A stretch of DNA of 64,000 nucleotides from Acidobacteriota bacterium (GCA_037388505.1 JARRKC010000013.1:9999-73998), one strand, 5' to 3'. Shown: positions 19,842 to 61,243, counted from the first letter of the stretch. Notes: generated by a model from the letters alone, not told the origin. A program made the numbers and translations.

Positions 19842-20219
19842 CTTCCCTTCTCTCCGATGCAACTCCGCAGCCGGCCGAGACCTTTCGGTCGGCGAATAGC
19901 GGGAGTCTATGCAAGCCGTGTTACACGAATTTGAACGTTCCATGAGGATTTCTTTAAGGAGTGAATTCTGGAAGATCGAACGCCCGCACGGCGCTCGTAT
20001 GCGACGGGCCAGGGCGCTAACCTGGATCCAGCGCCCTACTTTTCGTATTCAAAAAAGTGGCGTGCGCCTATAATCGACTCGACATTCTGGAATTCGTAGA
20101 AAGGAGGTACGATGTCCGATCAACCCCAAGGATGCGCCCGGATCACCGGCACTGTATCCAGTGACGGCTCCAAGGACGAAGATACCGGAAAGCATCTCAT
20201 CAAAGAAAAGGAGGTCAAA

Positions 20220-20837
20220 ATGGCCGTCCTCGTTGGTCAGAAAGCCCCTGATTTCGCCGCTCCCGCTTACCAAAACGGCGGTTTTTCCACAGTGAAACTC
20301 TCCGATTTCCTGGGTAAATGGGTTCTGCTCTGTTTCTACCCCGGTGACTTTACCTTCGTCTGAGCGACCGAAGTGTCGGCGGTCGCCGACCAATACAACA
20401 CACTCCAAGACTTGGGCGTAGAAGTCATCTCCGTCAGCGTGGACAGCCATTTCGTTCATAAGATGTGGAACGACCATGAATTGAGCAAAATGGTCTCGGG
20501 TGGTATCCCCTTCCCGATGGCTTCGGATCAGGCCGGCAATCTGGGTCGGGCTTATGGCATCTACGATGAAGCACAGGGCATCGAACTCAGGGGACGCTTC
20601 ATCATCGATCCCGACGGTGTTGTGCAGGCAATGGAGGTGATGACACCGCCTGTGGGACGCCGTATCGGCGAGACCATACGCCAGATCCAGGCCTTTCAGC
20701 AGGTGCGCGCCACGAAAGGCAGTGAAGCGACACCCGCGGGCTGGGAACCCGGACAGCCGACCCTCCACCCGGGTCCCGCTCTGGTCGGAAAAGTCTGGGA
20801 AGTCTGGAATCCTTCCATGGAACGAACCAAACACTGA
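20220..20837 (+). CDS. Peroxiredoxin (AhpC/Prx1 subfamily) with in-frame TGA at the peroxidatic Cys position, read as a putative selenocysteine peroxiredoxin (alternative start 20112)
   Basis: FYPGDFTFV-[TGA 20361-20363][35 protein letters not shown]. The two ORF-track ORFs 20112-20363 and 20373-20837 are in the same frame and together give a complete Prx. AAGGAGG SD precedes both ATG 20112 and ATG 20220. Confidence 0.6.
20364..20386 (+). promoter_or_regulatory. Candidate bacterial SECIS hairpin immediately 3' of the in-frame UGA
   Basis: GCGACCG-AAGUGUCGG-CGGUCGC: 7-bp GC stem, 9-nt loop containing GU. Confidence 0.45.
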
Positions 20838-21148
20838 CCGTGTCTCGCGCCCTTCGGGAGACGGGAAACGGGAGACGGGAATTCCGAATCCCGAATCCCG
20901 AGGGCGTGTTGCCGAAGTCCTTAGGACCTCAGCTCGACCTTGGTACTCGTCCGTCGAGATTTGAAGATCCGACCTCATGGAAGCCGCCACGGACGGCAAT
21001 GGCTCCAGAACAAAGAAATCCTTTGCGCACCTGGCGCTTCTGCGTGAAATCGAGTCGCCGAGGCTTCACACTGTTACCGGGATTCAGGCCAAGTCGGGCC
21101 TGAGGCTATTGGGGCAGCGCGCCCCGTGTCCCGACTTCCGTTTGCCGG

Positions 21149-38262: not shown

Positions 38263-39417
38263 ATGATCCTCCTCCGAGTACTCGTCTGCCTGGGGTTTCT
38301 CCTCTCTCCTTCTCTGACCGCAAACAACGAACTACCGCCGCTGAAAGTCACGGCCTGGCTCCAGGCGCCGTCAGGCTTCAGCGGAGAGTGGAGCACACTG
38401 CGCGGCAAGGTCGTCGTCGTGGAGTTCTGGGCCACCTGGTGCTCCCCCTGCGTTTCCGCCCTGCCTCACTTGAACCAGTTGGCCGAGGAGTTTCAGAACG
38501 AAGATGTCCTGTTTCTCGCGATATCCGAAGACGACCCGAAACGTCTGGAGGGATTTCTGGCGGGTCAATCCGTTCGTGCCATTATCGGAATCGATGCCGA
38601 CCGCAAGACCTGGAAGGCCTTCGATGTCCCGTCGATCCCGCATACCGTCATCATCGACGCGAAGGGACGGCTGATCGGTGCGACAACACCGGAGCAGCTT
38701 TCAGCGGAACGCCTCCGGAGGGTCCTCGCCGGGGAAACCGCAAAGTTTCCGCCGAAGGAGGGAATACGCTGTGATCTCCAGTGGGACGAGGATTCCATCG
38801 AGTGGCAAGATGGTGTTCGACCGACGACCTACGCGATCATCAAGCCGATCAAAACCACCATGGGTGGCTATCTGCCTCAACCGGGCCACCTGACCGCGGA
38901 TGGAGTCCCTCTCAGGACTCTCGTTCAGATCGCGTATCAGACCGATCCCTTCCACATCGAATGGAACCTGCCCAGGGACGACCGGACCTACCGGGCTGCC
39001 TTTCGCGTTCCGTCAGGGCGGGAGCAGCGGCTCTTCCCCCTCATTCGGCAGACACTCGCGGATGCCTTCGGCTTCCGCGCACGCTGGGAGGAACGCCTGC
39101 ACGAGGTTCGTGTGTTGCGTCGCATCGAAGGAGGTTCGATCGTGCCCGAGTCCCGGGCCGATGAGGATCTGGTCCAGGTGATGAAAGGTCGGATTACTTT
39201 ACGCCGCCAACCTGTCAGCAGGCTCTGCCAGATTCTCACGCAGCATGGATTGGGGGCTATCGTCATCGACGAGACGGGAATGAACGGACTCTACGATTTC
39301 GATCTTCCCTACCAGCCGGGCCAACCCGAAGTGACGCTTGGGGCCCTCAATGAAGTTGGTCTCGAGGCGGTCGATGCTCGCCGCACGATTCGCATCCTCG
39401 TGGTCGATCGGCAGTAG
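38263..39417 (+). CDS. Secreted TlpA/ResA-like thioredoxin (WCSPC) fused to TIGR03435-like (Acidobacteria-specific) C-terminal domain
   Basis: Signal peptide; EFWATWCSPCVSALP CxxC; C-terminal region ending …GALNEVGLEAVDARRTIRILVVDRQ resembles the TIGR03435 ending (…GLKLE…VLVID…). Confidence 0.65.
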   Translation: MILLRVLVCLGFLLSPSLTANNELPPLKVTAWLQAPSGFSGEWSTLRGKVVVVEFWATWCSPCVSALPHLNQLAEEFQNEDVLFLAISEDDPKRLEGFLAGQSVRAIIGIDADRKTWKAFDVPSIPHTVIIDAKGRLIGATTPEQLSAERLRRVLAGETAKFPPKEGIRCDLQWDEDSIEWQDGVRPTTYAIIKPIKTTMGGYLPQPGHLTADGVPLRTLVQIAYQTDPFHIEWNLPRDDRTYRAAFRVPSGREQRLFPLIRQTLADAFGFRARWEERLHEVRVLRRIEGGSIVPESRADEDLVQVMKGRITLRRQPVSRLCQILTQHGLGAIVIDETGMNGLYDFDLPYQPGQPEVTLGALNEVGLEAVDARRTIRILVVDRQ

Positions 39418-41450: not shown

Positions 41451-41585
41451 GACAACCTTCCAGGTTGTCCAGCTGCCGGGGTCGCGGCCACCGGGAAAGC
41501 TGAACGGCGCATCGAGACAGGAGCGTCCGTGGCGGCGTCGAGGAATCGTTCATTAGGGGCAGGGAGACAACCGGGGACGGTTGTC
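41450..41585 (+). promoter_or_regulatory. Two hairpins sharing one stem sequence (GGACAACC…GGTTGTCC) in the padR-permease intergenic region
   Basis: Hairpin 1 at 41450-41470 (9-bp stem, loop TCC) starts at the padR stop. Hairpin 2 at 41566-41585 (GACAACC-GGGGAC-GGTTGTC) ends 23 nt before the permease ATG. Confidence 0.3.
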
Positions 41586-41608
41586 CTACGTTGTCGGGAA
41601 AGTTCGAA

Positions 41609-44263
41609 ATGGGAGTCTTCTGGAATCGGCTTCGCAGTCTGTTGCGCAATGGAAGACTGGACGGCGAGCTGGACGAAGAGCTCGAGTTTGTTTTTCAGAT
41701 GGAGGTCGACGCCAACCTCGAGCGTGGCCTGAGCCCGGAAGAAGCAAGGCGGCAAGCACGGATCACCCTGGGGAGTCTCGAATCGATCAAGGAGGCCCAT
41801 CGTGACGCCCGGGGCATCCCCTGGCTCGACAACCTCCGCCGGGACACGATTCAGGCTGTCCGCTCCTATCGTCGAACCCCTTTGTTCACCGGCGTCGTCC
41901 TGATCACCCTGGCTGTGGGAATCGGCTTCTCCACCTTCGTGTTCAGCCTGATGGATGGGATTCTGTTGAAGCCCCTGCCCTATCCGCACGCCGAGAAGAT
42001 CGTCAGGCTCTTCCGAAATGTCGAAAGTCCCTTCTATCTGCGGGAATTCGCCTCCTCTCTCTATCTCGAGGACCGCGCGAACCAACCGGACAGTATCGAA
42101 GCCGTCGCGACCTTCCGACAATCCGGATTCAACATGGCCGGATCCGGCGAGCCACTTCGGGTCTCAGGAGCCTGGGCTACGCCTTCGTTCTTCAACGTGC
42201 TGGGGATCCCTCCTTATTTGGGAAGGACCTTCTCGCGGGACGATGTCAAAAGCGGTCGGTCCCTCGCCGTACTGAGCTACGCACTTTGGCAAGGAGCCTT
42301 TTCAGGAGAGCGATCTGCAATTGGGAGGAAGATCCTCCTCGACAACAAGCCATTCGAAATCATCGGCGTGATGCCCGAGGGCGAAGACCTTCTGGACGGC
42401 AGCTCCTACCAGCTTTGGCTGCCCCTGGATCTCAGCGCCCGCCCTCGGATCCGCGACGGCTTTTCGATCGACCAGGCCCAGGCCGAGGTCGATCTGTGGG
42501 CCGCGCGCATGCGCCGTACCTATCCGGGAGTGAAAGAGGAACTCGGACTCCATATCGAGCCCTACTTCGACGACCGATTTGCCGAGGCGGAGACGCACCT
42601 CTGGATCCTCTCATCTGCCGTCGCCTTAGTCCTGCTGCTGACCTGCGTGAACGTCGCGGGCCTCCTGCTTGCCAGGGGTTCGAGGCGAGGCCGGGAAGTC
42701 GCCCTCCGCTCGGCTCTTGGCGCGGGTCGGTCCCGACTGGTCGTGCAATTCCTGACGGAGAGTCTGCTCCTCGCCGTGCCGGCCGGCATCCTGGGGCTGG
42801 GCTTGTCCTATCTTGCGCTGCAGACCATGCGGATGTGGTCTCCCAACGGGCTGCCCCGTCTGGACAACGTTACCCTGGGTTGGTTCGAACTTCTGTTCGC
42901 CGTGACACTGGCCCTGGTTTCCTGCTTGTTGCTGGGCCTGGGTCCGGCGCTGAGAGACTCCCGTGCAAGACCGATGACGGCGTTGAAACAGAGCAACTTG
43001 ACGACCACCGGTGGCAAGAACCGGGGACGATGGAATTCGGTCCTGGTCGCCGGACAGATCGCTCTGGCTCTGATCCTGATGTTGGGAGCCGGCCTCTTTC
43101 TCAAGAGCTACTGGGAACTCTCCCACGTCGAGCTCGGCTTTCAGACCGAGAACGTCCTCACGGCCCGGCTGGATCTCTCTCAGGCGTTCACCTCCGAGGC
43201 GGAACGGGGTTCGTTGTCGCCCATCAACGATCGCCAGCAGGAACGGATCGTGGATTTCACGGGAAGGGTCATGGATGAACTCCTGAGTCTTCCGGGGGTC
43301 GAGTCGGTGGGGGTCGCGGTAGCTCCCCCACTGGGAGACTGGACGATCGGTTTGAGCGGTCTCGAAAGCGAAGACTCCAAAACTGGAGACGTGGGAAGCT
43401 TCACCGCCCGCGCTTCAGCTGTCAGCCCTGGCATCTTCGAGGTGCTGGGACTCCACCTGCTCGAGGGCCGGTTCTTCGATGCCCGCGACACTCGGTCGGG
43501 TGAATCGACACTGATCGTCGATCGGATGGTTGCAGACCGGTTCTGGCCCGACCAGAGCCCGCTCGGAAAGCGCCTGAAGTTCGGTAAACAGTGGCGGCGA
43601 ACGGTTGTCGGAGTCGTCGGGAGCATCCATTCAGCCGGCCCCAGTCGGCCTGCCGATCCGAAGGTTTACTTCCCCTTTGCCCAGTACCCCCTCCTGTCCG
43701 ACGTGACGTTCCTCGAGAAGGGCCGTATCGGCACGCCTCAGTTCGGGCGGGAGATCAAGAGGATCGTCGCCGGTTTAGAGCCGAATCTGCCGGTCTACGG
43801 TGTCGAAACGCTCGACGATCGCCTCGATCTTTGGAACTCGACCGAGAAACTCGTCAGCCTGCTCTTAGCCTTGTTCGCCGTTGTCTCCCTGTTTCTGGCC
43901 GCGGTCGGCCTCTATGGAACACTCGCCTTTCTGGTATCGGAAAGAACTCAGGAGGTCGGCATCCGCATGTCGCTCGGCGCCGATCGCGCCCGGATCTTTC
44001 GGATGATCACCTTCAGGGGCCTGTCCCTTGTTCTCGCGGGCTTCATTCTCGGATCGATCGGGGGTCTGGCCGTCAACTACTTCCTGGCCGGGCTGGTCTC
44101 CTGGGACCCGAACGCTCAGCTGATCTTTCAAGCGAAGGCCCTCGACATCTCCGTCTTCGCAGCCGTCGGCCTGCTCCTCCTCCTGATCGGTTTCCTGGCC
44201 TGCGCGATCCCGGCCCTCCGGGCCGCACGCCTGGACCCCAACCGGGCGCTGCGCTATGAGTGA
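41609..44263 (+). CDS. ADOP-family duplicated FtsX/MacB-like permease (TIGR03434-type)
   Basis: N-terminal …LRSLLRNGRLDGELDEELEFVFQMEVD…LSPEEARRQARITLGS… followed by two FtsX permease halves. ATG 41609 preferred over TTG 41591. Confidence 0.85.
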   Translation: MGVFWNRLRSLLRNGRLDGELDEELEFVFQMEVDANLERGLSPEEARRQARITLGSLESIKEAHRDARGIPWLDNLRRDTIQAVRSYRRTPLFTGVVLITLAVGIGFSTFVFSLMDGILLKPLPYPHAEKIVRLFRNVESPFYLREFASSLYLEDRANQPDSIEAVATFRQSGFNMAGSGEPLRVSGAWATPSFFNVLGIPPYLGRTFSRDDVKSGRSLAVLSYALWQGAFSGERSAIGRKILLDNKPFEIIGVMPEGEDLLDGSSYQLWLPLDLSARPRIRDGFSIDQAQAEVDLWAARMRRTYPGVKEELGLHIEPYFDDRFAEAETHLWILSSAVALVLLLTCVNVAGLLLARGSRRGREVALRSALGAGRSRLVVQFLTESLLLAVPAGILGLGLSYLALQTMRMWSPNGLPRLDNVTLGWFELLFAVTLALVSCLLLGLGPALRDSRARPMTALKQSNLTTTGGKNRGRWNSVLVAGQIALALILMLGAGLFLKSYWELSHVELGFQTENVLTARLDLSQAFTSEAERGSLSPINDRQQERIVDFTGRVMDELLSLPGVESVGVAVAPPLGDWTIGLSGLESEDSKTGDVGSFTARASAVSPGIFEVLGLHLLEGRFFDARDTRSGESTLIVDRMVADRFWPDQSPLGKRLKFGKQWRRTVVGVVGSIHSAGPSRPADPKVYFPFAQYPLLSDVTFLEKGRIGTPQFGREIKRIVAGLEPNLPVYGVETLDDRLDLWNSTEKLVSLLLALFAVVSLFLAAVGLYGTLAFLVSERTQEVGIRMSLGADRARIFRMITFRGLSLVLAGFILGSIGGLAVNYFLAGLVSWDPNAQLIFQAKALDISVFAAVGLLLLLIGFLACAIPALRAARLDPNRALRYE

Positions 44264-47503: not shown

Positions 47504-47881
47504 ATGAGACTCTCCGCTACGGAATGGACGGTCATGAACGTGGTCTGGGAGGAGCAGCCGGTCTCTTCGCGAGACGTACATGACCGGGTCGCGGACGGAA
47601 CGGGTTGGGCTTTCGACACGGTCCGAACGATTCTGAACCGCCTGGCGAAGAAGGGCGCCCTGAAATCCGAGGTGCGAGGCGGTACGGCTTATTTCACATC
47701 TCTTCTGAGCCGGGAAGAAGCCCGTCAGTCGGCGCTCTCCTGGATCGCCGAGAAGGCCTTCGGTGGTGCCCGGGAGGCCATGATGCAGTTTCTGGTCAGC
47801 CGCCACGATCTATCCCCGGCAGAGCGGGAGACCCTGCAAAAGCTTCTGGCCGAGTTGGACAACGAGGAGTCGGAACCATGA
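47504..47881 (+). CDS. BlaI/MecI/CopY-family transcriptional repressor
   Basis: Penicillinase-repressor winged-helix N-terminus MRLSATEWTVMNVVWEEQPVSSRDVH…TVRTILNRLAKKGAL. Confidence 0.85.
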   Translation: MRLSATEWTVMNVVWEEQPVSSRDVHDRVADGTGWAFDTVRTILNRLAKKGALKSEVRGGTAYFTSLLSREEARQSALSWIAEKAFGGAREAMMQFLVSRHDLSPAERETLQKLLAELDNEESEP

Positions 47882-50628
47882 TCGAGACCTTGAACGAATG
47901 GGCGTCTCTGTGGTGGGCCTGGATGTCGCCGCTGACGCTTCAGGTCTCGCTTCTGATCGGTCTCGTCTATCTCTTCGAGCTCGTGACACGACGCTGGGTC
48001 TGGCCTCAGTTGCGGCTCGTGCTCTGGCTTCTCGTCCTCGCACGCCTCCTGCTGCCCCCATCATTGAGCTCGCCGTGGAGCGTGACAGCACCCATTTACA
48101 CGGAGACCACACAGCTTCTTCGGGCGTTCGTTTACCCTCAGGATCCGCCTGCCGTGGATCCGCCCCTGGATGCATCGACGGCGGTCTTCCCTGAGTTTCG
48201 ATCCGACGGCCCGGAGCTTTCCGGGCCTCGAGATCACAGCACGATCCAGGGCCGAGATCCACAACCTTCAGTTCTTCTTCGAGCCGACGGCGTCCCGCCC
48301 CGGCCGGGGCTGACCTGGCAGTCCTGGCTGCTGATTCTCTGGGCCGTCGGGCTGATCGTATTCTTCTCTCTTCTGGCGGCATCCGTCCATCGATTGAAGA
48401 AGGAGCTTTCCGGAACACGGCGGGATCCGGAACTGACCGACATCGCCTCGAGGGCCGCCAGAACCGCAGGATTGAGAGCGGCACCCGACGTCCGCATCTC
48501 CTCGAGCGTGCCGACACCCGCCGTCGTCGGTGTCTTGCGCCCTGCCGTCCTGGTGCCTAAAGACCATGCGTCGGTGCTTCGCCCCGAAGACGTCCGCAAT
48601 GCTCTCCTTCACGAGATGTGCCACATCAAGCGGCGCGACCTTCTCGTTCAAAGAGCAGCGCTTCTGCTGCATCTCCTGTACTGGTTCAATCCGCTGCTCT
48701 GGGTCGTTCGTCGAAGAATCCGCCACCTGACCGAGATGAGCTGCGATGCCCGTGTGGTTCGATTGCTTCGGGGAGAAACGGACAGCTATCGCGCGACGAT
48801 TCTGCGCGCACTTCGGCCTCTCCTCGACGGCCCCATGCCGAGCAGACTCGACCAACTCGGTCTCGTCGAATGGCCGGGCCGGCTGACGGACCGGCTGAAC
48901 TGGCTCACCCGGACCGTTGGATCGAGATTCCGTGTGCCGGTCGCCGCCGCCGTGTCACTGGTGGCGATCGCTCTCGTGCTTCCGATGGTGCCCCCGGCCA
49001 GGGGCGACGCCGACGGTTTCGCCATTCTGCGCATCACAACCTTCACTCCGGTCGGAAACGGACAGAGCTACTTGGAAGGCCTCGATCTGTTCATCGGAAG
49101 GCCCTCAGAGACAATGGGCCTTTGGTTCCTCGGCCAGTTCACTGATCCCGAGCAGCCCCGCCGGATGCAGATCAGCATGCAGGTCGACAATATGGGGCCG
49201 GTTGGCCTGTTTGATGGAGACGGGGACAGTCGTGTGCCGGGGGATCGTTTCGTTCGGGAGGATCGAGTTCTGCGACATCGGACGCTCGTCTACCGGACAG
49301 AACCACTGGGCGTCCGCGGCGACGTGACCGAGGAGTCCCTTGCGCCGGAGTTCGGGTCTCGGTCACTGAAGAGCCTCACGGCATCTCGAGACGGAATTAC
49401 AGAAACCAGGACGGTCTTGATTCGAGGCGACGAGAGGCTTGCGGATTCGCTCGGTCTACCCGATCTGTCGGAAGAGTCTTTGCGGAAACGCTATCCCGGG
49501 CCGACGGAAATGAGTTCCGAGAAGGTCCAACAGTCCTTCCCGAAGGTCATCGCCCTGATGAACGATCAGTTGGAGAATCTCAGCTCGATGTCCCTCGTGA
49601 GCGACTACCGGGAATCCGTGCGGAAGGCGGCCCGATCGCTCGTCTGGGAAGAGACGGGTCCCGAGGTCACCAGTCGTGCCTTCGAATATCCCCTCGCGTA
49701 CCAGGAAACGGCTGTCATCGGTCCCGGCAAGAAGTACTTCCTGACGCGTCGTGGCGTGGACGTCATCCACCGATGCCAGGAAGACGGGGGCATCCTCGAG
49801 AGCTATCCGGTCGGTCCGGAGACGCTCGCCGCAACCCACCGGTCCTTCACCGTTGATTCGCAGGGGCATCTGGTCACCCTCCTCCAACGACCCGATTCCT
49901 TCAAGACCTTGCGTCGAGGAGAGTTGGTTCGGATCTTCGAATCGCCCGAGTCGTACACCGAAATTCCCCTCGCGCCCCCGGTCCGGTGGCCGATGGATCT
50001 CTCGATCGATGCGGCCGGCCGATACTACGTGCTGCGATGGCATGCCACTGCGGCCGACGTTCGCCGGATGGGACGAGAACTCTTGCCCCCCGCCTCTCAC
50101 TCGCTCTCGGTCGACCGCTACTCACCCGGTGGGAAACTCGAACAATCTCTGCTGCTGGATTCTTTCCTGACGGATGCACCGGCGGGCCACACCTGGAACT
50201 GGCCAAGGCCGGCCAGCCTCGCAGTTCTGGGAGACGGACGGACATTCATCCTTGCGTTGAGCAACCGGAAGGAGGGCGGAGCTCGGGTCACCTCGGGTCG
50301 CTTGTTTGAAGTCGATTGGCGGGGCTCGATTTTGCGTCCGGTTCCGCTCGAAGTTCCGGCAGCAGGACCGGTCACTTTGACCGACGTACATGGCCTTGGG
50401 AACATCCTGGCTCTGGAATGGTCGGATTACACGTCCATCCCGGAGGGACAGCCATCGATATCGACGCTTACAGTGAAGAGACTGCAACTCTGGCAGGACG
50501 GCGCGAACGAGCCCCTGGTCAACATCCGGGGAATCATCGAGGCCGTCTCCGGGGATCAGGCGCTCGTCACCCGAGCGGTGGCGGGAGGACCCGACACGCC
50601 GTCACTCTTCCTGGTGACTTACCGTTGA
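47878..50628 (+). CDS. BlaR1-like M56 family zinc-metallopeptidase signal transducer with ~600-aa non-PBP extracytoplasmic C-terminal domain
   Basis: ATGA overlap with blaI. TM helices, HEXXH (ALLHEMCHIKRRD), then a large domain of unknown family. The ORF-track 47605 start is an upstream extension. Confidence 0.8.
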   Translation: MIETLNEWASLWWAWMSPLTLQVSLLIGLVYLFELVTRRWVWPQLRLVLWLLVLARLLLPPSLSSPWSVTAPIYTETTQLLRAFVYPQDPPAVDPPLDASTAVFPEFRSDGPELSGPRDHSTIQGRDPQPSVLLRADGVPPRPGLTWQSWLLILWAVGLIVFFSLLAASVHRLKKELSGTRRDPELTDIASRAARTAGLRAAPDVRISSSVPTPAVVGVLRPAVLVPKDHASVLRPEDVRNALLHEMCHIKRRDLLVQRAALLLHLLYWFNPLLWVVRRRIRHLTEMSCDARVVRLLRGETDSYRATILRALRPLLDGPMPSRLDQLGLVEWPGRLTDRLNWLTRTVGSRFRVPVAAAVSLVAIALVLPMVPPARGDADGFAILRITTFTPVGNGQSYLEGLDLFIGRPSETMGLWFLGQFTDPEQPRRMQISMQVDNMGPVGLFDGDGDSRVPGDRFVREDRVLRHRTLVYRTEPLGVRGDVTEESLAPEFGSRSLKSLTASRDGITETRTVLIRGDERLADSLGLPDLSEESLRKRYPGPTEMSSEKVQQSFPKVIALMNDQLENLSSMSLVSDYRESVRKAARSLVWEETGPEVTSRAFEYPLAYQETAVIGPGKKYFLTRRGVDVIHRCQEDGGILESYPVGPETLAATHRSFTVDSQGHLVTLLQRPDSFKTLRRGELVRIFESPESYTEIPLAPPVRWPMDLSIDAAGRYYVLRWHATAADVRRMGRELLPPASHSLSVDRYSPGGKLEQSLLLDSFLTDAPAGHTWNWPRPASLAVLGDGRTFILALSNRKEGGARVTSGRLFEVDWRGSILRPVPLEVPAAGPVTLTDVHGLGNILALEWSDYTSIPEGQPSISTLTVKRLQLWQDGANEPLVNIRGIIEAVSGDQALVTRAVAGGPDTPSLFLVTYR

Positions 50629-51006: not shown

Positions 51007-52839
51007 ATGAAACACCGTCATCTCCACACATTTTCGATTGGATCGGCCGGCGTCCTCCTTTTCCTCCTGATCGGAGGCACCTGCGAATCCAGTCTCGCAG
51101 AGATCATCGTGCCCGGCGAGCGTGTGCACTGGGGTGACACGATTCACGTCGTCGTGAAGCCGAATCCGGAGAGGGGGCTCTATCCCGGCGACCGAGCCTG
51201 GCTGACAGTCGGCTTCTGGCGCCAGGGAGTGGAATTCATCCGATACGAGCCGCTCCAATCGGAGGGAGGGCAGTTCAGCTGCGATCTGACTCTGCCGGAC
51301 GACTGGGAGTACGCGAACGCCAGCGTCGTGACGACTGAGAGGTGGATCCCAGGCGGAAAGGGCCTGGCTGCCCTTGATCGAAACGGAGAGATTCCCCCGG
51401 GCGCACCCGTTCTCGAGACCAGCTTCATCTGGAACGGCTCCTCCCGGCGAGCCGACTGGGAAGCCGTTGCGAAAGCTGAACTGTCGCGGTACCCGACTCT
51501 CTGGTGGCTCTATCCCGAGGTTTGGGGACTTCATTTCATGGCGAGCGGAGGCAAGGTTCCCGTCGAGCTGATCCGAGATCAGCTCCCGTTCCTCGAACAG
51601 GCCGACGAGAGCGCCGTACTCCTGCGGGTATTGATGCAGGCAAACTGGGAGCTCGGAGAGACCACCGAGGCACTGCGGCAGTTGGAGCGTCTGTGTGAGC
51701 ACTACCCGGACTCCCGCGATACGATTCGAGCACTGAACAAAGCCGGCTATGAGATTTTCAAGAGGGGATTGCTCCCGGTTTCGAATGAGAGATGGAAAGC
51801 TCTGGCGGCTCAGGCCGTCAACGGTGCCCCCGACAACCCTGCGTTGCGAGTTTATGATATCGGTCTCTACTCGAACGAAGCGATTACGCTCGCTTCGTTC
51901 CGTCGGCTTTTCGAAGCCTGGACGAAGGATGACGGCGAGAGTCCCTACCCTTACATCCTACTGGCTCGAGCTCTCGCCCGCGAAGAGACGGAATTGGACC
52001 GAGCAGAAAAGCTTCTCACTCGAGGTCTCGAACTGTCGTTCGCCGTGCGACCGGTCCTGCTCTACGCACGGTACCCCGGCCTGGCTTTTCGTCTCCGTTC
52101 CGATTTGCGTGCTCGACGAGCCGACACCGCCGGAGCGCTTGCCGATATCCGGGCTGCGCAAGCTCTGGCTCGGAAGGGTGATCCGACGGACATCGAAACA
52201 GAGGCCGAAATCTGGCTTCAGGCGGGCAGGCCCGTCAAGGCGGAAACGGTGGCCCTGGAAGCGTACCGCAAGGGATCCCTCGAGGCCGAGGCATTCGTCA
52301 AGGATCTCTACGCGACGCGCACCGGTCGCTCGAACGGAGCGGAGGAGTATTTCTGGAGCCGGCTGACGGAGGGTGCCGACCGGCCCGGCGATCCTTCCGA
52401 CGAACCGGAAGACGCTCCCCATTTCGAGGGCGTGACCCTGGAGGGCCGTCGAGTCGACAACGCCTCTCTGAAGGGCAAGGTGGTCGTCCTGAACTTCTGG
52501 TTCACCACCTGCGGCCCCTGCATCGGAGAAATGACGGAGCTGAACGAGCTGGTTCGGGACTTCGGCGACCGGGTCCGCTTTCTGGCCTTCACCCACGAAC
52601 CACCCGAGATGGTTCGGACGTTCCTCGAGAGTCACGAATTCGATTATGAGATCGTCCCGAATGCGCGCGAGATCGAGGAATCCTTCGGCATCGGCTCACA
52701 CCCGACGCACGTTCTCATCGATCAGAAGGGCAAAGTCCGCTGGCAGGGCCTGGGAGCCAACCCCGACAACCTCAAGCGCCTCCGCGCGACTATCCAGCGA
52801 GTCCTGACAATAGGTGACACGCACGTAGTGAGTCCGTAA
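51007..52839 (+). CDS. Secreted TPR-like helical domain + C-terminal TlpA-like thioredoxin (CGPC) protein
   Basis: Signal peptide; C-terminal VVVLNFWFTTCGPCIGEMTEL… thioredoxin fold. Confidence 0.55.
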   Translation: MKHRHLHTFSIGSAGVLLFLLIGGTCESSLAEIIVPGERVHWGDTIHVVVKPNPERGLYPGDRAWLTVGFWRQGVEFIRYEPLQSEGGQFSCDLTLPDDWEYANASVVTTERWIPGGKGLAALDRNGEIPPGAPVLETSFIWNGSSRRADWEAVAKAELSRYPTLWWLYPEVWGLHFMASGGKVPVELIRDQLPFLEQADESAVLLRVLMQANWELGETTEALRQLERLCEHYPDSRDTIRALNKAGYEIFKRGLLPVSNERWKALAAQAVNGAPDNPALRVYDIGLYSNEAITLASFRRLFEAWTKDDGESPYPYILLARALAREETELDRAEKLLTRGLELSFAVRPVLLYARYPGLAFRLRSDLRARRADTAGALADIRAAQALARKGDPTDIETEAEIWLQAGRPVKAETVALEAYRKGSLEAEAFVKDLYATRTGRSNGAEEYFWSRLTEGADRPGDPSDEPEDAPHFEGVTLEGRRVDNASLKGKVVVLNFWFTTCGPCIGEMTELNELVRDFGDRVRFLAFTHEPPEMVRTFLESHEFDYEIVPNAREIEESFGIGSHPTHVLIDQKGKVRWQGLGANPDNLKRLRATIQRVLTIGDTHVVSP

Positions 52840-57022: not shown

Positions 57023-57358
57023 ATGAGACGATCCAAGGCTTCATCTTTCTTCATCATGGTATCGCTGTTGGGTTGCGCGGCGGCATGCCGATCGGGAAAA
57101 CCCGATGACTTGACGCCCCGGTATCTTTCCTCACCTACCCCACAGAACCTGCAGGCCCCGCCACTTACTCTCCGCAAACGGATCGTTCTCCGGGATTGTG
57201 AGAGTCTGTCGATGCAGTACGTTCTCACGGTTACTCCCGCCGAAGATGCTTATTACCTGTTCACCTCGCAGGGAATCGGTCAAATCGATTCTACGGGGCG
57301 ACTGGTGCGGCTCCTGGGGGACGACCTCGTCAAGCAGCGAACGCAGGACGTTCGGTGA
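57023..57358 (+). CDS. Lipoprotein N-terminal fragment (possible 5' part of a frameshifted lipoprotein-TlpA gene)
   Basis: Lipobox MVSLLGCAAAC. Protein-like sequence ends at TGA 57358, while a different frame carries protein-like sequence from ~57366 onward. Confidence 0.35.
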   Translation: MRRSKASSFFIMVSLLGCAAACRSGKPDDLTPRYLSSPTPQNLQAPPLTLRKRIVLRDCESLSMQYVLTVTPAEDAYYLFTSQGIGQIDSTGRLVRLLGDDLVKQRTQDVR

Positions 57359-58319
57359 TCCAAGCCATGAGTATAGAAAGAGTTTTCTACCTCGGTTCCT
57401 CCTCGCAACGGATTCCCGTGCGGAGATCTTCGCCGTCAATGCTATTGATTACGAGATTAGAAAGTATGACAGCCGAGGTGACTACATCGGCGACTTCCGC
57501 CTCTGCGAGGATGAGGACTATCGACCTCCTCCAGAATCCGTCGACGTTGAGCGGCTCAGCACCGACCTCGACTGGCGGACTGATTGGGCCAACACCTGGA
57601 CCCGGCTCAAGAACGTAGAAACGATCGACGACCGTTACCTGATCGTCCAATTGACGTCCCCCGAGTCGCAAAGGTACCGCCTGCAATTCTATTCCCTCGA
57701 CGGAGCGGTCGCCTTCAAGCCAATCGACTGGGATCTGGAACTGGCCGATGCCGATCAAGCGGGAAATCTCTACTTCGAGGAGAGGGACGCGGGCGGCGGC
57801 GTCACGGCTCTGGATGTCTACGGACTCGGACCCAAGAGGGACGAAGCTCGGCAGACGCTGGTTCCTGCTGTGACGGGCATGACAAATCGACGGGCTGAAT
57901 CTCCGGTGCCGGCGCCTGAATTCTCGGTCACTGATCTCGAAGGAAACGAGTTCTCGTTGGAGAATCTACGAGGACGCGTGGTTCTGGTGACTTTCTGGTC
58001 CATCGGCTGTTCTCCTTGTCGAGCGGAGGTACCTCGACTGAACGCACTGGCAGAGGAGTTCAAGGGTCTGCCCGTCACTTTTCTCGCGCCGACACCGGAT
58101 GGAGCCAAAGCGCTGCAGCAATTCCTATCAACGACCGATTTCCGGTTCCGGGTTATCAATTATGCGGGCACGGACTTGGCGGATCGCTTCGGTGTCCACG
58201 GCAGTATCCCCGTTCATTTCCTGATCGATAAGAAAGGGAATGTCGATTCGGTGATCAACGGCGCCGTAGTGAACGACGAGCGGCTCGGTCGGCGAGTCAG
58301 GCAGTTGCTTGACCGCTGA
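57198..58319 (+). CDS. TlpA/ResA-like thiol:disulfide oxidoreductase domain protein (upstream region probably frameshifted, so start unreliable)
   Basis: C-terminal thioredoxin fold VVLVTFWSIGCSPCRAEVPRL. The first ~55 codons of this ORF (Cys/Ser/Arg-rich) look non-coding. Confidence 0.5.
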   Translation: MRVCRCSTFSRLLPPKMLITCSPRRESVKSILRGDWCGSWGTTSSSSERRTFGDPSHEYRKSFLPRFLLATDSRAEIFAVNAIDYEIRKYDSRGDYIGDFRLCEDEDYRPPPESVDVERLSTDLDWRTDWANTWTRLKNVETIDDRYLIVQLTSPESQRYRLQFYSLDGAVAFKPIDWDLELADADQAGNLYFEERDAGGGVTALDVYGLGPKRDEARQTLVPAVTGMTNRRAESPVPAPEFSVTDLEGNEFSLENLRGRVVLVTFWSIGCSPCRAEVPRLNALAEEFKGLPVTFLAPTPDGAKALQQFLSTTDFRFRVINYAGTDLADRFGVHGSIPVHFLIDKKGNVDSVINGAVVNDERLGRRVRQLLDR

Positions 58320-58435: not shown

Positions 58436-61243
58436 CTACCTGGCCCTACGGTGCTGCAAAGCCCGGAGGATGGCATCGATCACATCGTCAAGATGCTTTC
58501 CGAGATCTTGCGCAAGGAATCGCAGTACCAGATAGCCGTTCTCCTGCAGCAGATAGTCCTTGCGGCGATCGCGACGATAAGCGTCCGTGTCGGCGACGTG
58601 TTGGGGGCCATCGACTTCGAGGACCAACCTGGACTCAGCACAGAGGAAGTCCACCTCCATCGCTCCCCGTCCGTCGAAGGGGATCGGCAATGTCACGTTC
58701 AGTTGAAACCGCCCGGCGGTCTGGGGGAGCGTTTCCAGACGCCGGAAAAGGAAGGCCTCACTGCCACTTCGAGCCCGGCCGACCTCCGTCGCATCGGCGG
58801 ACGGAGTTCTGGTTGCGCGGACGAACAGATCGGCCAGCGGCTTATCCACGCCGTCTCGAACCAGCCTCCGGACACTGGCTGCATAATCCTCTTTCCAATC
58901 GGGATCGACGGGGAGCGACACGTCTGTGGGCCAGCCGGGCAACGCGTGGGCCGGCAGGATGATCTTGTATCCCGCCGCCTCGTAGCCTTTGCAGCGTCGG
59001 TCGAACATCCGCGCCAGCATAGGCACGTTCAGATCGGCATAGTCATAGACTCGAACTTCACGCTTCCTTTCATGCAGACGATGGAGCCGGCCGAGATACT
59101 GTGCGATCGTCCCCCGCCACGAGACGGGAAGAGTTAGAAACAGAGTATCCAACCGGGCATCGTCGAATCCTTCTCCGATGAAGCCACCGGTCGCCAAGAG
59201 AACACGCTCCTCAGTCTCCGGGATCGCGGCCAGCTGGGCTCGTGCTTCCCGAAGGGCCTTGCGTCCCATGCCGCCCCTCAACGTGACCAAGTGCGTCACT
59301 CGATCCGACAACGCCCGAGCCAGGATATCGAGATGCTCGTTGCGTTCGGTCAGAACGATGGGCGAGCGACCTTCTCGGACCGTCTGCACGACGTCCTCAC
59401 AGATGGCGCGGTTTCTTCTTTCATCGACGGTCAACTCATCATAGAGATCCTGAAATCGCAATCGGACATCGGGATCCGCAGGTCGAAGCGCACGAAAATC
59501 CGTAGGACGAACCAGCACCTTATGATCGAAGGGACGTCGGGCAGCCTGCCTTCTGGGATCCACGCGGTATCGGATCGGACCGCACTGCATGAAAATGATG
59601 GGATGGTGGCCGTCCTTGCGGATGGGCGTCGCCGACAGGCCGAGCACGAACTTCGACTTCGCCTCACGTGCAGCCAATTCGAAGCTGTGTGCAGGAATGT
59701 GGTGGCATTCGTCGACGATCAAATGGCCATATCGGCTCACGAGGTCGTCGACCTCCCCCTTGCGGACCAGGCTCTGGATCACCGCCACGTCCAGGAGACC
59801 CGTGGGCTTCTTTCGTCCTCCGCCGATGGTACCGATGCTCAACCTGGAAAGGCCGAGGAACGAGCTCAGTCTCTCGACCCACTGCTCGAGCAACTGTCTC
59901 CGATGAACGATCACCAGGGTATTGACACGGCGCCGGGCGATCATCCACGCGGCCACGACCGTCTTTCCGAAAGCCGTCGTCCCGGACAGCACCCCGATGT
60001 CGGAGACCAGCAGCGCGTCGGCGGCGAGCTTCTGCTCCGGCCGCAGGCGGCCCTGGAATTCGACATCCAGCGGCTCACCGCAGTAGCGTTCCTCCCGGAT
60101 TGCGGTTTCGATCCCAAGATCGGAGAGAAGCTGCATCAGGTCCTCCAAACATCCCCGTGGAAGGCCGACGTGCCGCGGGTAGTCTCGGGCACATCCGATG
60201 ATGCGAGGTTTGCGGAAGGTGGGAAGCCGCATCGCCTGGGCCCGGTAGAACTCGGGGTTCTGAAAGGCAGCCAGACGGATCAACCGGTTACGTAAGGCTG
60301 GCGCCAAGTCCTCTTTGGGAATGAAGATCTCATTTCCCAGAACGATCTCGAGCCGTTCCGGCAGCGGACCCGTGACGGGTGGGCCGACCCATCGGCGTGA
60401 CGGAGACGTCTTCCAGGGAGTCGCATCGTCGTCATCGGGCGCGAGGCGCACGCCGAGGATTCTCCCGCGGGCTTCCGCTTCGTCGACAACCGCTTCCACT
60501 TCAGCGCGCGTCATCTTCCGGATTTTCGACAGGAAGCTCCACTGATCCGAATAAGGAACAAACTGGTCGTCAACAAAGACTGAGTTTCCACCTTCCCTGG
60601 GTCCCTTTTGAAGGGGAAGGGCGATGAGATTGCCGAATCCGCCCTTCGGCAGGGTATCCTGATTCGGAAAGAGACGATCATACGAATCCAGGCCGATGTC
60701 CGGGCAACGCTCCATGGTTTCGGTCAAGATGAATGTGCCGAGCGAACGTGCCATTCGCGCGGGAATCGACTCATCGAAGAAGAACCACACATGGGCGCCG
60801 CCGCCGGACCGCGAGCGTTCCATGGCTGCCGGAAGATCAAACACGCGGCAGGTCTGAAGGAAGGCCAGTGCGTCCTCCTGCCAGTTCTCCTTGTCGAAGT
60901 CGGCAGCCAGAAAGAAGCAGGTTTCGTCCCGGAGCATCGGGTAGACGCCGACTACGCAATCCTGTTCCCGATCGTCTCGTCCCTCCAGATGGAAGCGGAT
61001 GACGTCGTCCGTCACGGCCAGAAAGCGCTGATGTGGACAGCGACTGCATTTGATCTTCGGCTTCTCGCACACGCCGGCCACCCACTCGTTCCCACAAGCC
61101 GGAGAGTATCCGGACCGGCCCGTCCTGCGGCTTTCGAATCGCCGCGGATACACGTCCTCGCGTCCTCGGAACAAGGACCGAAAGAGCGCGATCTTTACTT
61201 CCGGAGGAGAATGAAGATCGACGGCTAACGGCACTTCATCCAC
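58436..61243 (-). CDS. Multidomain protein: Zn-ribbon + archaeo-eukaryotic primase-polymerase (Prim-Pol) + XPB/Rad25-like SF2 helicase + C-terminal DUF559 (Vsr-like endonuclease fold)
   Basis: AEP motifs I FLAADFD, II SGGGAHVWFFF, III GLDSYD. Helicase motifs I GTTAFGKT, II VDECHH, III LSATP, VI QYLGRLHR. DUF559 …LVLEVDGPQHV…YRRDRRKDYLLQENGYLVLRF…. Confidence 0.8.
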   Translation of the reverse strand: MDEVPLAVDLHSPPEVKIALFRSLFRGREDVYPRRFESRRTGRSGYSPACGNEWVAGVCEKPKIKCSRCPHQRFLAVTDDVIRFHLEGRDDREQDCVVGVYPMLRDETCFFLAADFDKENWQEDALAFLQTCRVFDLPAAMERSRSGGGAHVWFFFDESIPARMARSLGTFILTETMERCPDIGLDSYDRLFPNQDTLPKGGFGNLIALPLQKGPREGGNSVFVDDQFVPYSDQWSFLSKIRKMTRAEVEAVVDEAEARGRILGVRLAPDDDDATPWKTSPSRRWVGPPVTGPLPERLEIVLGNEIFIPKEDLAPALRNRLIRLAAFQNPEFYRAQAMRLPTFRKPRIIGCARDYPRHVGLPRGCLEDLMQLLSDLGIETAIREERYCGEPLDVEFQGRLRPEQKLAADALLVSDIGVLSGTTAFGKTVVAAWMIARRRVNTLVIVHRRQLLEQWVERLSSFLGLSRLSIGTIGGGRKKPTGLLDVAVIQSLVRKGEVDDLVSRYGHLIVDECHHIPAHSFELAAREAKSKFVLGLSATPIRKDGHHPIIFMQCGPIRYRVDPRRQAARRPFDHKVLVRPTDFRALRPADPDVRLRFQDLYDELTVDERRNRAICEDVVQTVREGRSPIVLTERNEHLDILARALSDRVTHLVTLRGGMGRKALREARAQLAAIPETEERVLLATGGFIGEGFDDARLDTLFLTLPVSWRGTIAQYLGRLHRLHERKREVRVYDYADLNVPMLARMFDRRCKGYEAAGYKIILPAHALPGWPTDVSLPVDPDWKEDYAASVRRLVRDGVDKPLADLFVRATRTPSADATEVGRARSGSEAFLFRRLETLPQTAGRFQLNVTLPIPFDGRGAMEVDFLCAESRLVLEVDGPQHVADTDAYRRDRRKDYLLQENGYLVLRFLAQDLGKHLDDVIDAILRALQHRRAR

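Follow-up and report, generated by a model that had tools for sequence, protein, structure and literature searches.

A probable PrxU-type peroxiredoxin with selenocysteine at its peroxidatic position in an Acidobacteriota genome

Peroxiredoxins (Prx) that carry selenocysteine (Sec) in a TxxU motif of the AhpC-TSA domain (PF00578) belong to the experimentally verified prokaryotic selenoproteins, the first having been verified in Eubacterium acidaminophilum (PMC13188914, citing Sohling et al., 2001). Twelve Prx selenoprotein genes were on record in 2006 (PMC1794560) and 91, from 78 organisms, in 2016, when Prx formed the seventh entry by organism number in a table of bacterial selenoprotein families (PMC5029168). 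Under the name 'PrxU', the literature yielded little apart from citations of Sohling et al. (2001). Here we analyse a gene, prxU, at positions 20112-20837 on the plus strand of a 64,000-nucleotide stretch of an Acidobacteriota genome (GCA_037388505.1, JARRKC010000013.1:9999-73998; hereafter 'the window', numbered from its first letter). On the strength of sequence comparison, we assign a probability of about 0.93 to its being one PrxU-type peroxiredoxin, in which a UGA codon at 20361-20363 encodes Sec as the peroxidatic residue, Sec84.

The window protein has the AhpC/Prx1-type fold and, by prediction, the UGA-encoded Sec at the peroxidatic TxxU position that mark PrxU of E. acidaminophilum and the NCBIfam family NF040737; it differs from them in no family-defining feature, though its host is an uncultured bacterium, which the nearest orthologous locus (L001) and the gene content place, probably, in Acidobacteriota. 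With typical 2-Cys peroxiredoxins (human PRDX3, 5ucx; Salmonella AhpC, 1yep), it shares the domain and the active-site pocket, but it has Sec in place of the peroxidatic Cys and Thr207 at the C-terminal resolving-Cys position, and it adds an N-terminal arm that carries a Cys and, 10 residues before the Sec (U-10), a further Cys that is invariant. The Prx-like thiol:disulfide oxidoreductase selenoproteins (UxxC/UxxU; PMC13188914) fall in the same Pfam clan, AhpC-TSA/redoxin, and also use Sec; they carry it in a thioredoxin-type UxxC, whereas the Sec of the window protein lies in TxxU, and they form a different family. The gene thus belongs to a family that is known and curated, and because PrxU already has a curated model its novelty is low; nothing here alters existing knowledge of selenoproteins.

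The reading frame and its internal UGA codon

Translation of the window gives a single frame of 242 codons from 20112 to 20837, with one internal TGA (20361-20363) and a terminal TGA at 20835-20837; the predicted long form has 241 residues including Sec84. An earlier note on this DNA had described an unbroken run of 158 codons beyond the internal stop. The frame is indeed uninterrupted, but that count includes the terminal stop, and the sense codons number 157.

For the domain searches U84 was replaced by Cys in the query. The NCBIfam model NF040737 ('peroxi_PrxU', an equivalog described as a thioredoxin-dependent peroxiredoxin) gave a score of 389 bits (cutoff 270), with residues 6-235 aligned to model positions 2-232 of 233, N-terminal extension included. 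The Pfam domain AhpC-TSA (PF00578) was matched with an E value of 3e-40 over residues 41-173, unbroken across position 84, and the 1-cysPrx_C domain was matched as well. Solved 2-Cys peroxiredoxins align at E ~1e-45 and place the TGA on the Cys of DFTFVCPTE, which confirms the earlier statement that the stop codon takes the exact place of the catalytic Cys; agreement of this extent lies far outside chance. At this site, the window protein reads P77-G-D-F-T81-F-V-U84 (local string FTFV-U-ATE), a P-x3-T-x2-U motif; P77, T81, R160 and R162 are invariant in alignment A3. AlphaFold2 (AF2) modelled the core of a Cys-form homologue (P0054) at a predicted local distance difference test score (pLDDT) above 90.

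Orthologous loci were taken from the GTDB collection, with one genome per species. Among the best 80 of 592 related stretches (63-82% identity), TGA occupies the peroxidatic column in every one, and the hosts span more than 10 phyla. They include Acidobacteriota, Chloroflexota/Anaerolineae, NC10 and Beta-/Gammaproteobacteria (Thauera, Thiobacillus, Ottowia, Marinobacter); Neomarinimicrobiota, KSB1, Calditrichia, Gemmatimonadetes and Pirellulaceae (Planctomycetota); and Thermodesulfovibrio, Desulfobacteraceae, Actinomycetota, Cytophagia, Spirochaetia and others. The earlier note had proposed that TGC in close relatives would reveal a mutation or an error; with TGA in all 80 best loci, this was not borne out.

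A single transversion separates the TGA from TGC, homologues of the Cys form (FTFVCATE) exist and Sec machinery is not seen within the window, all of which would suit an ordinary Cys peroxiredoxin in which the TGA arose by nonsense mutation or through faulty base calling or assembly, the locus then being a pseudogene or an artefact. We regard this as very improbable. Against it stand the recurrence of TGA in the same column across so many phyla and its retention in two independent, near-identical assemblies, GCA_964420675.1 (98.7% DNA identity with the window over 12.7 kb) and an ENA scaffold, in both of which the gene was called as pieces of 83 and 154 residues. Furthermore, the 157 downstream codons are intact and under purifying selection, and a covarying hairpin follows the codon in TGA forms only (see below).

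A different objection comes from public protein records. The closest 120 public protein clusters (P0001-P0120) comprise 100 Sec forms, 19 Cys forms and 1 Ser form; in 87 of the 120, all of them Sec forms, the gene callers gave W at the site, and the other 13 Sec clusters are fragments bounded on one side by the TGA. The W calls would be expected if these organisms, under a variant code, translated TGA as an amino acid (Trp or Gly), and the residue would then not be Sec. Nevertheless, TGA ends 14 of the 28 Pfam-supported open reading frames (ORFs) in the window; since it is an ordinary stop here, the code is the standard one. Thauera, Thiobacillus, Acidobacteriota and Chloroflexota, all carriers of the gene, are established users of the standard code, and an enzyme with Trp as its peroxidatic residue would be inactive. 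It is on short contigs that W was called, and for these a Trp-reading table was presumably chosen: W in the 87 clusters is TGA translated with such a table, a systematic mis-annotation. A variant code is the least probable of the explanations that we weighed, and we reject it together with pseudogene and sequencing error because TGA is universal in the 80 loci, is kept by both assemblies and is otherwise used as an ordinary stop.

Given the ratio of 100 Sec to 19 Cys clusters, and the table in PMC5029168, the description of PrxU as rare in the earlier note is overstated. Over a wide range of environmental phyla, this Prx clade consists mainly of Sec forms.

The hairpin downstream of the UGA codon

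Two overlapping and mutually exclusive hairpins can be drawn on the plus strand after the UGA codon, at 20375-20390 and at 20364-20386. The former consists of a 5' arm GUCGGC (20375-20380), a loop GGUC (20381-20384) and a 3' arm GCCGAC (20385-20390), its stem beginning 11 nt and its loop 17 nt past the UGA. The apical loops of bacterial selenocysteine insertion sequences (SECIS) lie 16-37 nt past the UGA (PMC10778597), a range into which the loop at 17 nt falls.

Conservation was assessed in a gap-free alignment of 81 sequences (A2), with covariation compared against 500 shuffles and against slid registers. The hairpin at 20375-20390 is paired in 92.6% of cells, 47 cells being changed on both sides, and its covariation of 0.291 compares with 0.087 in the shuffles, none of the 500 reaching it; it also lies far above all slid registers. 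At the pair 20378/20387 (A2 columns 30/39) the combinations are GC in 50 sequences, AU in 18, CG in 5 and UA in 4, with no unpaired case; these positions are the third positions of a Ser (UCN) and an Ala (GCN) codon, and both are synonymous. RNAalifold, supplied with no structure, returns the 4-bp core of this hairpin with its GGUC loop. The core is kept in 81 of 81 sequences, with GGUC as the loop in 77 and AGUU in 4, while a continuous stem of at least 6 bp is present in 57, the window among them. Six Cys/Ser homologues retain only 3-5 of the six stem pairs. A pattern scan (TGA, 8-15 nt, stem and [A/G]GU loop) returned the prx site as its only match within a long open frame. Judged by this sequence comparison, 20375-20390 is the conserved SECIS of the gene, and a single fdhF-like element with GGUC loop and fixed spacing across all surveyed phyla makes a clean case of synonymous-site selection.

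In a close homologue (L087, 967-1566; protein P0022) the active-site codon is TCA (Ser), which differs from TGA in a single base, and the SECIS stem has decayed to three of six pairs. P0022 is probably a Sec-to-Ser derivative and is possibly inactive as a peroxidase.

The SECIS of Escherichia coli fdhF, studied by Liu et al. in 1998 and by Huttenhofer et al. in 1996, is reportedly a minimal 17-nt stem-loop that starts 11 nt after the UGA and has a GGUC loop and a bulged U. The window element resembles it in lying within an ORF, in its 11-nt spacer, in its GGUC loop and in the start of that loop, 17 nt past the UGA here and 18 in fdhF. The likeness extends further in 12 orthologues, mostly proteobacterial, in which a 4-bp upper stem is followed by a bulged U and a lower stem. 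Differences from fdhF are that the window stem has no bulge, that no lower helix is conserved around the UGA and that Rfam gives no match.

The earlier note had proposed the other hairpin, 20364-20386 (GCGACCG / 9-nt loop AAGUGUCGG / CGGUCGC), as the SECIS; the protein would still be a Sec peroxiredoxin, with its functional element starting right after the UGA. This hairpin exists. It is the local minimum-free-energy fold (-14.7 kcal/mol with a GUC/GAC extension, z -2.08), is more stable in the window than 20375-20390 (-12.0 versus -10.4 kcal/mol) and is paired in 91% across the alignment. That level of pairing reflects columns fixed for other reasons, because its 3' arm shares nucleotides with both the loop and the stem of 20375-20390. 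No compensatory change was found in it: two variable pairs are unpaired in 19/77 and 24/77 sequences, and its covariation, 0.026, is no better than the 0.032 of the shuffles. When non-pairs are removed its energy over the orthologues ranges from -12.5 to +2.0 kcal/mol, and for the orthologues of Thauera and Thiobacillus, neighbours of selA and selB, it is ~0 kcal/mol, whereas 20375-20390 persists in them. Its loop starts 7 nt past the UGA, outside the range of 16-37 nt (PMC10778597), and RNAalifold chooses 20375-20390. We therefore think it improbable that 20364-20386 is the functional SECIS. Of the TGA and the adjacent hairpin, whose conservation the earlier note had suggested checking, the TGA is conserved; the hairpin named with it is not, and the overlapping 20375-20390 is conserved instead.

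In the window mRNA the slightly stabler, non-conserved fold would exclude the SECIS hairpin, a competition that might modulate Sec insertion.

In eight Beta-/Gammaproteobacterial loci (L028, L030, L032, L033, L035, L040, L042 and L068), flank clustering and tblastn placed selA directly downstream of the TGA-containing prxU and in the same orientation, with selB next wherever the locus is long enough; examples are the clusters of Thauera sp. WH-2 (L033, 3001-6714) and Thiohalophilus (L030, 528-4218). In these two, selA scores 591-597 bits against the cutoff of 268 for TIGR00474, and selB 336-383 bits against 242 for TIGR00475 (NCBIfam). This proteobacterial linkage was the only one to emerge from clustering the flanks of the 80 loci, which revealed no redox partner conserved across phyla. 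With TGA at every orthologous locus, a covarying hairpin, a family-model match and selA/selB beside eight orthologues, the proposal of a PrxU-type Sec peroxiredoxin, already made in the earlier note, is well supported.

The geometry of the hairpin, its covariation and the presence of selA and selB next to orthologues lead us to infer that the UGA at 20361-20363 would be recoded during translation by the bacterial Sec pathway. The hairpin at 20375-20390 would recruit SelB carrying Sec-tRNA(Sec), and Sec84 would be inserted with no termination. The presence of PrxU with Sec84 marks the host as a likely selenium user.

Several results weigh against this interpretation. The genes selA, selB and selD are not among the ~40 window ORFs scanned with Pfam, tblastn with SelA and SelB of L033 and L030 found nothing within the 64-kb window, and ARAGORN detected no tRNA, and hence no tRNA-Sec, in the window; it found no tRNA in 60 orthologous loci either. 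The 66-nt region overall folds no better than shuffles (z -0.33), the competing hairpin is the more stable of the two in the window, as given above, and the window stem, a continuous 6 bp, has no bulged U such as that of E. coli fdhF. Finally, a search of the whole window against Rfam at the gathering threshold gave no match on the hairpin, and a permissive search (E up to 10) of 20300-20460 gave just two chance snoRNA matches and no SECIS family. The silence of Rfam decides nothing, because hairpins as small as this one, within coding DNA, may score too low for any curated model.

Predicted peroxide reduction, the N-terminal arm and a probable internal start

Reduction of peroxide by a Sec selenolate, with formation of a selenenic acid, is established Prx chemistry. 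In the window protein, the selenolate of Sec84, in its P77-x3-T81-x2-U84 pocket with conserved Arg, would attack the O-O bond of the peroxide and become the selenenic acid. The oxidized Sec would then have to be resolved by a thiol elsewhere, because Thr207 (codon 20730-20732, plus strand) stands at the canonical C-terminal resolving-Cys position. The VCP motif is lacking, whose resolving Cys forms a bond with the partner subunit's peroxidatic residue in typical 2-Cys peroxiredoxins; in the alignment to 5ucx, E-A-T207-P-A-G-W of the window protein lies opposite EVCPANW. Over 81 loci, this position is Thr in 62, Cys in 15 and Met in 4.

The best candidate for the missing thiol appears to be Cys8, on a flexible arm of ~36 residues; Cys74, or direct attack by thioredoxin, would be the alternatives. 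Cys74 (TGT, 20331-20333, plus strand) lies 10 residues before the Sec; a Cys is found at U-10 in 81/81 loci, and Cys74 is invariant in alignment A3. Thioredoxin, the reductant expected from the NCBIfam family name, would regenerate the enzyme.

Cys8 (codon 20133-20135) lies in the N-terminal motif G-C-A-R-I-T-G, encoded at 20130-20150 on the plus strand, and may act as a resolving or relay thiol. The motif, in the form G-C-A-R-x-T-G, occurs in ~78 of 81 loci, and Cys8 is invariant in alignment A3. Its codons vary freely (TGC in 45 and TGT in 34 for Cys, all four codons for Ala, CGN and AGR for Arg); since the motif is held at the amino-acid level despite this synonymous variation, the arm is evidently translated. 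A variable, charged linker separates the motif from the Prx core. In the AF2 model of the Cys-form homologue P0054, residues 1-40 have pLDDT below 60 and the arm is unplaced, from which the arm is predicted to be flexible. Two points tell against the part proposed for Cys8. The AF2 model does not place the arm with confidence and says nothing on the geometry of Cys8, and in 15 orthologues Cys8 occurs together with the canonical resolving Cys, which means that it is no simple substitute for the latter. We therefore hold with low confidence that Cys8 is a mobile resolving or relay thiol.

Translation of the long form would start at the first ATG, which has a Shine-Dalgarno (SD) sequence, AAGGAGG, at 20101-20107 (plus strand), 4 nt to its 5' side; of 79 orthologous loci, 74 have an SD-like core ahead of their first ATG. 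A second AAGGAGG, at 20209-20215, precedes an in-frame ATG at 20220-20222, 36 codons into the ORF on the same strand. The 5-mer core of the SD is found before this internal start in 74 of 81 loci, compared with 14% of within-gene control windows, and is kept though the linker around it is otherwise variable; as the start codon itself, 78 loci have ATG and 3 have GTG. The conservation of both elements suggests two products, of 241 and 205 residues, and the internal start probably yields the latter, a form that would lack the arm, in addition to the long one. The PrxU purified from E. acidaminophilum is reported to have ~203 residues, which would fit the 205-residue rather than the 241-residue form. 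No description of an internal start was found in a literature search that lay outside the original PrxU paper.

Taken together, arm and internal start allow a tentative model, which we consider rather doubtful: Cys8 might act as a swinging resolving or relay thiol that forms a selenenylsulfide with Sec84, taking over from the lost C-terminal resolving Cys, and the arm-less isoform, made from the same mRNA, might give rise to mixed oligomers of armed and unarmed subunits. If true, this would be a mechanism not described for AhpC/Prx1 peroxiredoxins.

Annotation of the gene and other features of the window

A mechanical ORF list divides the gene into 20112-20363 (83 residues) and 20373-20837 (154 residues, GTG start). 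The public gene calls of the contig that is 98.7% identical to the window show the same split, in agreement with the earlier note, which had foreseen it. In public records the 83-residue half appears as 'hypothetical protein' (15 contigs) and the 154-residue half as a truncated 'AhpC', and for the majority of close relatives the stored sequence shows Trp in the catalytic position, the wrong translation table having been applied. The main value of the analysis lies in annotation: reading the gene as PrxU with Sec84 would restore, from two mislabelled halves, a functional antioxidant enzyme, its function being predicted.

A consensus scan for promoters and terminators between 19850 and 21200 found none. 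Directly 3' of the prxU stop, at 20839-20914, lies a very stable stem-loop (-49.3 kcal/mol, z -3.5) made of short direct and inverted repeats (GGGAGACGGGAAAC / GGGAGACGGGAAUU / CCGAAUCCCGAAUCCCGAG); it has no U tract and was therefore not called by the terminator scan.

A brute-force list of TGA-separated ORF pairs was uninformative in this window of 60% GC. One such pair, 41081/41501 (140 + 919 codons), was considered as a Sec formate dehydrogenase and rejected: the downstream part reads as a membrane protein and the upstream part is of low complexity. The ORF at 41591-44263 (plus strand), downstream of the in-frame TGA at 41501, is a candidate FtsX/MacB-type permease.

Three more ORFs of the AhpC-TSA/redoxin type (TlpA-like) lie on the plus strand at 38263-39417, 51007-52839 and 57198-58319, one of them fused to DUF3738. 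They cluster around an ORF for a BlaR1-type M56 peptidase (47605-50628, plus strand); neither these three nor the M56 ORF contain an in-frame TGA. On the minus strand, an ORF of 935 residues at 58436-61243 combines an AEP-TOTE primase domain (PF22548, 2e-98) with ResIII/DEAD helicase and DUF559 endonuclease-like domains, and looks like a TOTE conflict-system gene.

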